Shown: positions 10,539 to 17,292, counted from the first letter of the stretch. The stretch is DNA of 64,000 nt from GCF_988243305.1 NZ_OZ547136.1; one strand, 5' to 3'. A program made the numbers and translations. Notes: generated by a model from the sequence alone, not told the origin.

Positions 10539-11017
10539 CAGAGAGAGGATTCCATCTGTTACGTAGGTCGAAGGGGATGCGCCTATTTTGTCAGAAGCGG
10601 GGCGCGCTGTCAGGTTTCGTTTCAGATTTATCGCGTGAAGCGACCTCTTGCGAAGGTTAGGCGCACCGTCGCTGAGGTCGCTGAGATTGAAAGCTTCATT
10701 TTTCGTCCATGATGGCGTTGTAAATCTGGAACTGACTTATTTCCTTGTCAAAGGATTAAGATAATTTAAGAAATACCTGACAATATAAAAAGAATTTTCA
10801 GCCTGGTAATTTACCGCTTCAGGTCTATATTTGTGTTGAATATATTTTGCGCGGAAGTATTCATCTAACGGGGCTCTCTATTTTTTAGAATAGAGTGCAT
10901 ATTTTCAATTAAGACATTCTTAGAGGATAAAAAGGAATTTACTACTATCAGTGTCTTAAATAAAGTAATCGGTTATATACGGATGTGGAGTCGATAAATG
11001 AGATTGAAGGAATATAT

Positions 11018-11560
11018 ATGAAATTAAGATTTATTTCGTCTGCGCTGGCCGCCGCACTATTCGCCGCTACGGGTAGTTATGCTGCCGTTGTAGATGGCGG
11101 TACAATTCACTTTGAAGGCGAACTGGTGAATGCTGCCTGTTCAGTGAATACTGACTCGGCAGACCAGGTTGTCACACTCGGTCAATATCGTACCGATATT
11201 TTCAATGCTGTTGGTAATACCTCTGCATTAATTCCATTCACTATACAGTTGAACGACTGCGATCCTGTCGTTGCCGCTAATGCTGCCGTTGCATTTTCTG
11301 GTCAGGCGGATGCAATCAATGATAATTTATTGGCCATTGCATCCAGTACTAATACAACAACAGCAACGGGTGTCGGTATTGAAATACTTGATAATACATC
11401 CGCAATTCTCAAACCTGATGGGAATAGCTTCTCAACCAACCAGAACTTGATCCCCGGGACCAACGTTCTTCATTTTTCTGCACGTTATAAAGGCACCGGT
11501 ACAAGTGCATCAGCAGGGCAAGCAAATGCTGACGCGACTTTTATTATGAGATACGAATAA
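11018..11560 (+). CDS. sfmA: type 1-like fimbrial major subunit, 180 aa
   Basis: Signal peptide then fimbrillin-like sequence; ATG at 11018 with GAAGGA RBS; AT-rich 480-bp upstream region. Confidence 0.85.
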
Positions 11561-11778
11561 TCAAAACCACGTTGTTTTGAATTATATATCACGTCTTATA
11601 ACAAAGTAATGTACCGGTTGTCTGAAGCGGTATGGTGGCAATGTAAATCGAAATCACGTTCACTTTGTATCATGCCGCTTTATTAAATGAAAAGGGAATG
11701 ATGTGTGTAAGAAACCAAAGCAATCATTTCTTTATACTCCTTATTTTTGCCGTCAGGAATACACAAGGCGTATTAACT

Positions 11779-12471
11779 ATGATGACTAAAATAAAGTTAT
11801 TGATGCTCATTATATTTTATTTAATCATTTCGACCAGCGCCCATGCTGGCGGAGGGATCGCATTAGGTGCCACGCGTATTATTTATCCCGCTGATGCTAA
11901 ACAGACTGCGGTATGGATTAGAAATAGCCATACCAATGAGCGCTTTCTGGTCAATTCGTGGATTGAAAACAGCAGCGGTGTAAAAGAAAAGTCATTCATC
12001 ATTACACCGCCACTGTTTGTTAGTGAACCCAAAAGCGAAAATACTTTGCGTATTATTTACACCGGTCCACCGCTGGCGGCAGATCGTGAGTCTCTGTTCT
12101 GGATGAATGTTAAGACGATCCCTTCGGTAGATAAAAATGCATTGAACGGCAGGAATGTTTTGCAACTGGCGATTTTATCGCGCATGAAATTATTTCTCCG
12201 TCCAATTCAATTACAAGAATTACCCGCAGAAGCGCCGGACACACTCAAGTTTTCGCGATCCGGTAACTATATCAATGTTCATAATCCATCACCTTTTTAT
12301 GTCACCCTGGTTAACCTGCAAGTGGGCAGCCAAAAACTGGGGAATGCTATGGCTGCACCCAGAGTTAATTCACAAATTCCCTTACCCTCCGGAGTGCAGG
12401 GAAAGCTGAAATTTCAGACCGTTAATGATTATGGTTCAGTAACCCCGGTCAGAGAAGTGAACTTAAACTAA
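11779..12471 (+). CDS. sfmC: periplasmic fimbrial chaperone (PapD-like), 230 aa
   Basis: Signal peptide + chaperone fold sequence; start re-picked at MMTKIKLL. Confidence 0.85.
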
Positions 12472-12501
12472 CCGAATCATCTGACAATATCAGAGCTAAT
12501 T

Positions 12502-15123: not shown

Positions 15124-16131
15124 ATGAAGATAATCTGCAGATTATTATTGGCAATGGCATGTTTGTGTCTGGCAAACATATCCTGGGCTACTGTTTGTGC
15201 AAATAGTACTGGCGTAGCAGAAGATGAACACTATGATCTCTCAAATGTCTTTAATAGCACCAATAACCAGCCAGGGCAGATTGTTGTTTTACCGGAAAAA
15301 TCCGGCTGGGTAGGTGTGTCAGCAATTTGTCCACCCGGCACGCTGGTGAATTATACATACCGTAGTTATGTCACCAACTTTATTGTTCAGGAAACTATCG
15401 ATAATTATAAATATATGCAATTAAATGATTATCTATTAGGTGCGATGAGTCTGGTTGATAGCGTGATGGATATTCAATTCCCTCCGCAAAATTATATTCG
15501 TATGGGAACAGATCCTAACGTTTCGCAAAACCTTCCGTTCGGGGTGATGGATTCTCGTTTGATATTTCGTTTAAAGGTTATTCGTCCCTTTATTAACATG
15601 GTGGAGATCCCCAGACAGGTGATGTTTACCGTGTATGTGACATCAACGCCTAACGATCCGTTGGTTACACCTGTTTATACCATTAGTTTTGGTGGCCGGG
15701 TTGAAGTACCGCAAAACTGCGAATTAAATGCCGGGCAAATTGTTGAATTTGATTTTGGTGATATCGGCGCATCGTTATTTAGTGCGGCAGGGCCGGGGAA
15801 TCGACCAGCTGGTGTCATGCCGCAAACCAAGAGCATTGCGATCAAATGTACGAATGTTGCTGCGCAGGCTTATTTAACAATGCGTCTGGAAGCCAGTGCC
15901 GTTTCTGGTCAGGCGATGGTGTCGGACAATCAGGATTTAGGTTTTATTGTGGCCGATCAGAACGATACGCCGATCACGCCTAACGATCTCAATAGCGTTA
16001 TTCCTTTCCGTCTGGATGCAGCTGCGGCAGCCAATGTCACACTTCGCGCCTGGCCTATCAGTATTACCGGTCAAAAACCGACCGAAGGGCCGTTTAGCGC
16101 GCTGGGGTATTTACGCGTCGATTATCAATGA
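15124..16131 (+). CDS. sfmH: fimbrial adhesin-like (FimH-type) subunit, 335 aa
   Basis: Signal peptide, fimbrial subunit-like C-terminus, position after the usher. Confidence 0.8.
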   Translation: MKIICRLLLAMACLCLANISWATVCANSTGVAEDEHYDLSNVFNSTNNQPGQIVVLPEKSGWVGVSAICPPGTLVNYTYRSYVTNFIVQETIDNYKYMQLNDYLLGAMSLVDSVMDIQFPPQNYIRMGTDPNVSQNLPFGVMDSRLIFRLKVIRPFINMVEIPRQVMFTVYVTSTPNDPLVTPVYTISFGGRVEVPQNCELNAGQIVEFDFGDIGASLFSAAGPGNRPAGVMPQTKSIAIKCTNVAAQAYLTMRLEASAVSGQAMVSDNQDLGFIVADQNDTPITPNDLNSVIPFRLDAAAAANVTLRAWPISITGQKPTEGPFSALGYLRVDYQ

Positions 16132-16141
16132 GGTACGGAGA

Positions 16142-16657
16142 ATGAGAAGAGTACTCTTTAGCTGTTTCTGCGGGCTACTGTGGAGTTCCAGTGGATGGGC
16201 AGTTGACCCTTTAGGAACGATTAATATCAATTTGCACGGTAACGTTGTTGATTTCTCCTGTACCGTAAACACAGCGGATAAGGATAAGACGGTAGATTTA
16301 GGCAGATGGCCTACGACACAATTACTGAGCGCTGGCGATACCACGGCACTCGTCCCTTTTAGCCTGCGGCTGGAGGGATGTCCTCCGGGTTCAGTTGCGA
16401 TTTTATTTACGGGAACGCCGGCATCTGATGCCAACCTGCTGGCTCTGGATGATCCCGCAATGGCACAAACCGTCGCCATCGAATTACGTAATAGCGATCG
16501 CTCCCGGCTCGCACTGGGGGAGGCGAGCCCGACTGAGGAAGTAGATGCAAATGGCAATGTCACACTAAACTTTTTTGCCAATTATCGAGCGTTAGCCAGC
16601 GGTGTTCAGCCAGGTGTGGCGAAAGCGGATGCGATATTTATGATCAATTATAATTAA
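16142..16657 (+). CDS. sfmF: minor fimbrial subunit, 171 aa
   Basis: Start re-picked at MRRVLFSCF with AGGTACGGAGA RBS region; the ORF-track start at 15947 overlaps sfmH. Confidence 0.8.
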   Translation: MRRVLFSCFCGLLWSSSGWAVDPLGTININLHGNVVDFSCTVNTADKDKTVDLGRWPTTQLLSAGDTTALVPFSLRLEGCPPGSVAILFTGTPASDANLLALDDPAMAQTVAIELRNSDRSRLALGEASPTEEVDANGNVTLNFFANYRALASGVQPGVAKADAIFMINYN

Positions 16658-16659
16658 TA

Positions 16660-17292
16660 TTATATTAATTCATATAATTTGGCATAGTCGATAAGCTCTA
16701 CAATTGAATGCAAACCTAGCTTGCCATAAATATTAGATTTATGCGCACTAACTGTTTTATTGCTAAGTAATAACTTATCGGCAATTTCTTTATTAGATAA
16801 TCCGCTAACCAGATAACGTAATATGGTTACTTCACGATTAGATAGCACAGTGACCGTTGAACTATTCGTACTACATTTATTGCTTTTTATATAGTTGAGC
16901 GTTTCGCTGGGAAAAAAAGTGTATCCGGAGAGGATCATCTGAACGGCATGAAAAATATCATTCTGATCATTGCATTTACTGACAAAACCGTTAGCACCAG
17001 CTTGTATCGCTCTGCCAGCATAAAAGCATTCTGATTTCGATGATAAAAATAATACTTTCACTGTACTCTGAATTTGTTTGATCCTTTTCAGGAAGGTAAA
17101 ACCGTCTGTACCGGGCAAGTCTATATCCATAATGATTAAATCAACAGGACGGGTTCGGAGATAATCGATGGTTATGCGGTAATCATCCGTTTTCAGGACA
17201 ATCTGCAATTCACTGTTTTTTTGCAACAGAACTTCAATAGACATTCTGATGATAGGATGAGTATCCATAATGATCACCGACGTTGGTTTCAT
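16660..17292 (-). CDS. fimZ: LuxR-family response regulator of fimbrial expression, 210 aa
   Basis: N-terminal receiver domain and C-terminal LuxR HTH (LSNREVTILRYLVSGLSNKEIADKL); start re-picked at MKPTSVIIMD. Confidence 0.85.
   Translation of the reverse strand: MKPTSVIIMDTHPIIRMSIEVLLQKNSELQIVLKTDDYRITIDYLRTRPVDLIIMDIDLPGTDGFTFLKRIKQIQSTVKVLFLSSKSECFYAGRAIQAGANGFVSKCNDQNDIFHAVQMILSGYTFFPSETLNYIKSNKCSTNSSTVTVLSNREVTILRYLVSGLSNKEIADKLLLSNKTVSAHKSNIYGKLGLHSIVELIDYAKLYELI

Follow-up and report, generated by a model that had tools for sequence, protein, structure and literature searches.

Type 1 fimbriae of Salmonella are encoded by fimAICDHF-fimZ-fimY-STM0551-fimW-fimU, a cluster that begins beside folD and ends in a tRNA-Arg(UCU) gene, and whose promoter is described as non-invertible (PMC3604780 and a review). 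In PMC3203922 and a review, FimY is described as an activator of fimZ, FimW as a repressor, and fimU as the source of the tRNA that reads rare arginine codons; FimZ binds the fimA promoter (PfimA) at -98 to -47 (PMC3203922), and its phosphorylation is needed for fimA activation (the review). The ortholog in Escherichia coli, with the same position and flanks, is sfm. In PMC3604780, 65% of the E. coli genomes studied carried it, strains of phylogroup B2 never did, and its pilin SfmA was 65% identical to Salmonella FimA; the cluster is considered ancestral to Escherichia and Salmonella, and lost in B2 and E. fergusonii (PMC3559732). The type 1 fimbriae of E. coli (fimB, fimE, fimS, fimAICDFGH) share with sfm the chaperone-usher mode of assembly and a two-domain tip adhesin (SfmA matches the solved E. 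coli FimA chains with E ~1e-40), but are non-orthologous, lie at another locus and are controlled by fimS and FimB/FimE. Here we compare with these systems the region 10539-17292 of a 64,000-nt stretch of DNA (GCF_988243305.1 NZ_OZ547136.1; hereafter ‘the window’, with positions counted from its first letter). We consider it very probable that this region is E. coli sfmACDHF-fimZ, intact but silent, which corresponds by orthology to the type 1 (fim) cluster found at folD...tRNA-Arg(UCU) in Salmonella. The locus as such is well described, annotated in thousands of genomes and already known.

The window is part of an E. coli chromosome: out of 5,426 complete E. coli genomes, 5,424 have a match to its segment 10400-17700, with a top identity of 99.4% (SMS-3-5 being among those at 99.3%). 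Both in this best match and in K-12, the Prokaryotic Genome Annotation Pipeline (PGAP) gives the order cysS, ybcI, ybcJ, folD, sfmA, sfmC, sfmD, sfmH, sfmF, fimZ (opposite strand) and tRNA-Arg(UCU), and thus names the same genes as an earlier sequence-only reading of the stretch. The studied region begins one base past the start codon of folD (minus strand, 9672-10538, an open reading frame (ORF) call) and ends at that of fimZ. On the plus strand it contains sfmA (major pilin, 180 aa, 11018-11560), a 218-bp spacer of 35% GC (11561-11778) in the position that fimI occupies in Salmonella and Citrobacter, sfmC (PapD-type periplasmic chaperone, 230 aa, 11779-12471), sfmD (outer-membrane usher, 869 aa, 12502-15111), sfmH (two-domain tip adhesin, 335 aa, with an intact ATG start, 15124-16131; called from ORF, Pfam and a structural model) and sfmF (minor/adaptor subunit, 171 aa, 16142-16657); convergent with the latter, fimZ (minus strand, 16660-17292) encodes an orphan NarL/FixJ-type response regulator of 210 aa. 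All six genes have an ATG, a stop codon and zero internal stops, and their products show end-to-end Pfam coverage (Fimbrial; PapD_N + PapD_C; PapC_N + Usher + PapC_C; Response_reg + GerE) together with full-length NCBIfam equivalog matches well over the cutoff (SfmA: PF00419 over residues 30-179 and FimA equivalog at 317 bits against a cutoff of 140; SfmC, with PapD_N + PapD_C: FimC at 475 bits; SfmD, with PapC_N + Usher + PapC_C: FimD at 1881 bits; FimZ: 447 bits against a cutoff of 271), so that the complete frames announced by the sequence-only reading were recovered and no frameshift was found. The five exported proteins carry, as judged by eye, an N-terminal hydrophobic core followed by a small-x-small motif (SYA|A, AHA|G, SYA|E, SWA|T and GWA|V), which agrees with the signal peptides proposed for the subunits. 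In comparison with K-12 (sfmACDHF-fimZ, b0530-b0535), the genes, their order, their position and the upstream region are the same, with protein identities of 97.7-100% (100% for SfmA and FimZ) and coding DNA identities of 98.0-98.7%, whereas the K-12 locus differs by the lack of the sfmH ATG, by an usher two residues shorter (the window has an extra Tyr-Asp at sfmD codons 490-491, 13969-13974, in a DYDYDY run, and the closest genome likewise encodes 869 aa), by the lack of a 9-bp duplication at 10668-10676 and by the presence of the DLP12 prophage after the tRNA gene. By homology, the SfmC chaperone and the SfmD usher would assemble a fibre of SfmA, with SfmF as the adaptor and the two-domain adhesin SfmH at its tip.

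The completeness of the reading frames does not extend to the system. Orthologous loci were gathered via SfmH homologues and exact-protein look-ups (the Salmonella locus being confirmed by a FimA ~98% identical to PDB 6ERJ), and the placement between folD and tRNA-Arg(UCU), with a convergent fimZ, was common to Salmonella, Citrobacter, Enterobacter and E. albertii, while the Buttiauxella cluster sits at another chromosomal position. The window and the Salmonella locus agree in chromosomal position and in the arrangement and strand of A, C, D, H, F, Z and tRNA-Arg(UCU). Both have cysS, ybcI, ybcJ and folD as left-hand neighbours and the tRNA-Arg promoter block on the other side, and their proteins are 57-72% identical, SfmA reaching 65% with FimA, but the window is without fimI, fimY, STM0551 and fimW. 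Among the seven loci compared, fimI, fimY and fimW were all present in Salmonella (which has a short ORF of 102 aa at the STM0551 position), in Citrobacter portucalensis and in Citrobacter koseri (which has an STM0551-like EAL gene and a disrupted fimZ); Buttiauxella has fimY and fimW without fimI, Enterobacter kobei has fimY without fimI and fimW, and E. coli (the window) and E. albertii have none of the three, these two being the only loci from which fimY is missing. In Salmonella, fimY, STM0551 and fimW sit between fimZ and the tRNA gene; in the window this interval is a 241-bp spacer (17293-17533) with an argU promoter-like site (TTGACT-16-TATAAT, 17475-17502), followed on the plus strand by argU (17534-17610; detected as tRNA-Arg(tct)), whose tRNA-Arg(UCU) decodes AGA and which is the counterpart of Salmonella fimU. 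Searches with fimI, fimY, STM0551 and fimW by tblastn (E up to 10) gave no match in the 64-kb window (for fimY and fimW, none better than E = 3.6), and blastn of the spacers recovered no remnant of these genes. The description ‘all intact’, as given in the sequence-only reading, is accurate for the frames; relative to the Salmonella-type cluster, fimY, fimW and fimI are missing. As a separate observation, fimZ of C. koseri (locus L088, 11592-12224) is broken into fragments of 63 aa and 29 aa; in the same genome the promoter palindrome described below departs from the consensus form at two positions of its left half.

The folD-sfmA spacer (10539-11017, 479 bp) has a GC content of 39.0%, as compared to 52.7% for the window, and belongs to the 1.4% of 479-bp windows that are poorest in GC. 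This low value is unevenly distributed: the 162 bp on the folD side (10539-10700) are ordinary (53.1% GC), while the 317 bp on the sfmA side (10701-11017) reach 31.9% GC (lowest 0.08% of same-size windows), and the AT-richness that had been attributed to some 480 bp consequently stands for the sfmA-proximal part and fails for the folD-side one. The first 84 positions of the spacer (10539-10622), of ordinary composition, are 83.5% identical to Salmonella and kept in B2 strains; the remainder (10623-11017, plus strand) is sfm-specific, and its AT-rich core (10701-11017) corresponds to the published K-12 ‘promoter island’. The folD/sfmA spacer has been listed among such islands of K-12, which are H-NS-associated and contain H-NS motifs (PMC3661553). 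In the window, TCGATAAATG (plus strand, 10991-11000) matches the high-affinity H-NS motif TCGATAAATT (as quoted in PMC3661553) at 9 of 10 positions, and as one of seven comparable matches in the 64 kb it is insignificant alone. PMC5797941 and PMC3649669 (citing Korea et al. 2010) describe sfm as poorly expressed in the laboratory and H-NS-repressed, in agreement with the crypticity under laboratory conditions invoked by the sequence-only reading, and they report that constitutive sfm expression leads to adhesion to eukaryotic cells and that SlyA overproduction raises sfmHF 2.6-fold. Since the K-12 spacer is ~97% identical to that of the window and silencing is shown for K-12 in this literature, we infer that H-NS would occupy the ~320-bp AT-rich sfmA promoter region in this strain too, and that it would keep the operon silent; the promoter has no invertible switch. 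A consensus sigma-70 scan found nothing on the plus strand ahead of sfmA or on the minus strand ahead of fimZ, and with a total of 16 sites against a shuffle expectation of 16.3 it is uninformative, differing also from the PlatProm method behind the ‘promoter island’ label. Within the same spacer, the 9-bp tandem duplication GTCGCTGAG at 10668-10676 is found neither in K-12 nor in the closest complete genome, and contributes to a perfect 9-bp hairpin (10639-10647 / 10674-10682).

The Salmonella fimA start site was fixed at position 5248 of the retrieved Salmonella locus (L084) by means of two H-NS-like motifs and the coordinates in PMC3203922. The alignment of the seven upstream regions contains one block conserved across genera, with the palindrome TTCTTA-N8-TAAGAA, which in Salmonella spans -82 to -63 of PfimA and lies within the mapped FimZ region. 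Salmonella, C. portucalensis and Enterobacter carry it without mismatch, Buttiauxella with one mismatch and C. koseri with two, and matches with at most one mismatch occurred only at these fimA promoters in the ~192 kb scanned, a total to which E. coli contributes both the window and K-12. The half-site TTCTTA resembles the EvgA box. By alignment and motif scan, the positional homolog in E. coli is GGATTA-N8-TAAGAA (plus strand, 10753-10772), with the right half kept and mismatches at 3 of 6 positions of the left one, and E. albertii is more degenerate still (five mismatches). An AAAAGA block downstream of the proximal TAAGAA half-site keeps the same spacing in E. coli as in Salmonella. The alignment to the mapped PfimA would further place the sfmA -10 element at TATATT (10826-10831), with the start-site zone at 10824-10838 (plus strand), from which a 5' untranslated region of ~180 nt would follow.

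FimZ itself matches PF00072 and PF00196 over their full length, and its D56 and K106 are aligned. Its closest solved relative is EvgA (201 residues aligned, E = 4e-35), with which it shares the REC + GerE architecture and the retention of the phospho-acceptor Asp and the conserved Lys; EvgA differs in having a cognate kinase (EvgS) and the canonical acidic pair D-D of the receiver domain, whereas the orphan FimZ of E. coli and E. albertii has D10-T11 (codon 11 at 17260-17262) in the place of the D-E of Salmonella. As phosphorylation is needed for fimA activation by Salmonella FimZ, the exchange of Glu11 for Thr could matter, and could affect phosphorylation. In Salmonella FimZ opens the promoter, the expression of fimZ requires FimY, and FimW acts as a brake; Escherichia has retained fimZ and the tRNA gene and lost fimY and fimW. 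Because of this loss, of the degenerate half of the palindrome and of the Thr in FimZ, we argue that the ancestral activation circuit (FimY to FimZ to PfimA) is probably disconnected in Escherichia, which would leave sfm expression to H-NS antagonists (SlyA, for example) or to some other input.

Four points weigh against our account of the cluster and its circuit. The donor strand of SfmA is 5 residues shorter than that of Salmonella FimA, which may impair assembly (PMC3604780); in our comparison, 4 residues precede the GG motif of SfmA as compared to 6-9 in the other genera, which leaves it 2 short of the shortest homologs, those of Buttiauxella and C. koseri. In Salmonella, a high level of FimZ bypasses FimY (as stated in a review), so that the loss of fimY need not disable the circuit. 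Other TAAGA/TCTTA elements of E. coli (10757, 10910, 10918 and 10954) might serve FimZ in a different arrangement. Lastly, the palindrome is tied to FimZ by its position, on the basis of a 52-bp mapped region in Salmonella and not of a defined consensus.

A further difference between the window and K-12 concerns the adhesin gene. The start of sfmH reads CAATGAAG in the window and CAATAAG in K-12, where a 1-bp deletion removes the ATG (15124-15126 in the window; 6810-6838 in the K-12 locus L003). Owing to this loss the annotated K-12 gene starts at a TTG eight codons further on, which results in an N-terminus without a basic region. By exact-word searches, the allele of the window occurs in 2,643 complete genomes and that of K-12 in 1,493; Salmonella and E. 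albertii use the same ATG, which points to the window allele as the ancestral one, and the published functional tests likely kept the native sfmH start of K-12, and hence the lesioned allele. The SfmH model (built with 29 homologues; mean predicted local distance difference test score (pLDDT) 87) shows an N-terminal beta-domain and a pilin domain, the latter (residues 187-335) matching PF00419. Among solved structures the LpfD adhesin (5AFO; E = 1e-19, template-modelling score 0.62) matches it best, the E. coli FimH being much weaker, so that in its tip adhesin, too, sfm departs from the E. coli type 1 fimbriae; a sequence search of solved structures with SfmH returned LpfD only, and no Salmonella FimH structure. 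PGAP and NCBIfam both call SfmH ‘D-mannose specific adhesin FimH’. This is a name carried over from Salmonella, and it is contradicted by published binding data: recombinant Sfm showed no mannoside binding in the account given in PMC3604780 (citing Korea et al.), an absence that, as reported, sets it apart from Salmonella fim.

The low GC content of the cluster (44.5%, as compared to 52.7% for the window), its position next to argU (a phage integration site, occupied by DLP12 in K-12 and by a prophage in E. albertii), its presence/absence polymorphism and the designation of sfmA as ‘alien’ (PMC3661553) could be read as the marks of a horizontally acquired island at a tRNA hotspot, or of a transferred replacement allele, with AT-richness reflecting a foreign origin and not drift in place. 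At least 80% of the segment is carried by 4,076 of the 5,426 complete genomes, and ~25% lack the cluster; in these (e.g. Nissle 1917) folD lies ~270 bp from the tRNA gene. The homology with Nissle 1917 ends at window position 10622 and restarts at 17430, and these breakpoints delimit an sfm-specific block of 10623-17429; similarity to Salmonella ends at the same boundaries (84 bp into the spacer on the folD side, and 72 bp ahead of the tRNA). The divergence pattern points in the same direction, as between E. coli and E. albertii the sfm genes show saturated synonymous divergence (dS 1.7-2.2, amino-acid identity 75-83%) against a dS of 0.09-0.23 (amino-acid identity 95-99%) in the left flank (folD, ybcI, ybcJ), while within E. 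coli sfm, with a dS of 0.02-0.08, does not exceed folD (0.08). On the right side, envY and ybcH are also highly diverged between the two species (for these two and the sfm genes together, dS ranges from 0.9 to saturated). The same position and gene order in Salmonella, Citrobacter and Enterobacter argue, however, against transfer, as do the derived states shared by E. coli and E. albertii (no fimY/fimW, a short SfmA N-terminus and the GGATTA half-site), their standing as mutual closest relatives in every identity matrix, and the ancestral presence of sfm with loss in B2 and E. fergusonii (PMC3559732). We thus regard an origin by transfer as unlikely, and of the ‘silenced, horizontally acquired-type promoter’ proposed by the sequence-only reading the silencing is borne out by the H-NS-associated island of K-12, while a recent acquisition is at odds with the shared locus.

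In Escherichia, the GC content at third codon positions (GC3) of the sfm genes is 0.33-0.47, whereas in Salmonella, Citrobacter and Enterobacter the structural genes have 0.52-0.69 (in the direct comparison, 0.36-0.47 in the window and 0.41-0.63 in Salmonella fim); fimZ is low in every genus (0.34-0.48) and folD stands at 0.56-0.57 (0.66 in Enterobacter), so that the drop of ~0.2 is confined to the structural genes of Escherichia. Furthermore, the Escherichia proteins form a long branch, and for FimD, FimH and FimZ Salmonella is nearer to Buttiauxella than to E. coli. Two accounts of the divergence from E. albertii fit, namely a past AT-biased burst after silencing, and alleles near the argU integration hotspot that are old or were replaced.

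A second alternative, to which we give little credence, is that sfm is a decaying relic, with frames that are open by chance and a fimbria that is no longer assembled or expressed, heading for the loss already seen in B2 and Shigella. The short SfmA donor strand, the missing FimY and the degraded regulator site are compatible with it, as are the donor-strand defect and the incomplete Shigella operons noted in PMC3604780, the B2 strains in which folD adjoins tRNA-Arg (and, more broadly, the quarter or so of complete genomes without the cluster), the IS1 insertions and partial deletions that interrupt it in some strains, the loss of the sfmH ATG in the genomes counted above and the 5 nonsynonymous to 2 synonymous changes of sfmF relative to K-12. 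Apart from sfmF, the ratios of nonsynonymous to synonymous substitution rates (dN/dS) against K-12 are 0.00-0.09; sfmA and fimZ have accumulated 7 and 10 synonymous changes, respectively, and no amino-acid change at all. Against E. albertii the ratios amount to 0.05-0.11, despite the saturation of synonymous sites, and these low values indicate that the sfm proteins are still under purifying selection. Taken together with six frames that are all intact in AT-rich DNA, and with the adhesion to eukaryotic cells that constitutive expression promotes in K-12 (PMC5797941 and PMC3649669), these observations speak against decay. Phase variation by a fim-like invertible promoter element, suggested by nothing other than analogy with E. 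coli fimS, has next to no chance of being correct, since the 9-bp inverted-repeat scan that the sequence-only reading had recommended (having itself seen no flanking inverted repeats) returned 0 perfect pairs of at least 9 bp, spaced 50-800 bp, in 10400-11300 (shuffled sequence would give 1.5), the repeat of E. coli fimS, TTGGGGCCA, has no occurrence in the whole window, the interval from folD to envY holds no recombinase gene and none like fimB/fimE is nearby, and the orthologous Salmonella promoter is the non-invertible one referred to above.

Returning to sfm as an intact and silenced ortholog of Salmonella fim, its codon usage may bear on its translation. The frequency of AGA is 7.0 per 1000 codons across the cluster, as compared to 0.53 in the other long ORFs of the window (13-fold; Fisher p = 1e-8), and it appears early in three subunit genes (sfmA codon 4, sfmH codon 6, and sfmF codons 2-3 as AGA-AGA). 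Because of this enrichment and of the placement within codons 2-6, the translation of sfm would be sensitive to the supply of argU tRNA; parallels are known in the dependence of Salmonella fimY on fimU and of the E. coli fim genes on rare tRNAs. A weak AU-rich hairpin (TCAAAACCAC / GTTGTTTTGA) lies directly 3' of the sfmA stop (11561-11580) and, by analogy with other fimbrial operons, may act as an attenuator that sets the ratio of pilin to machinery. At the other end of the operon, the stop codons of sfmF and fimZ (16657-16660) are 2 bp apart, as compared to 45 bp in Salmonella; between these convergent genes no intrinsic terminator was detected, the folds found being weak and AT-rich (z-scores -0.2 and -1.9), and in the lack of a terminator-like hairpin operon read-through would be antisense to fimZ. 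The tRNA was the sole match in an Rfam scan of the region.

Outside the cluster, envY follows directly after argU (17534-18417), and the DLP12 prophage of K-12 (intD onward, including appY and ompT) is absent, which leaves the attachment site at argU unoccupied here. Further along, at 39046-39202 and 39550-39706, lie tandem copies of the hokE/sok toxin-antitoxin, two in number (Rfam sok, 82 and 84 bits), in line with the two hokE genes annotated in the nearest complete genome, and the small RNA ES036 lies at 40679-40720 of the window.

The name ‘D-mannose specific adhesin FimH’, automatically assigned to SfmH, calls for caution on the part of annotation users. For the biology of the genus, the one useful addition of the comparison is that Escherichia lost the co-regulators that switch on the same cluster in Salmonella. 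We tentatively propose, as a possibility and no stronger, that sfm is a machine which has remained under selection while being cut off from its ancestral circuit, that its crypticity is built in and its expression answers to another input, and that strains with ATG-intact sfmH alleles may produce a more complete adhesin-tipped fibre than the one reported. If true, K-12 would be a poor model for Sfm, and the comparison with Salmonella would help in seeking the circumstances under which Sfm fimbriae are made.

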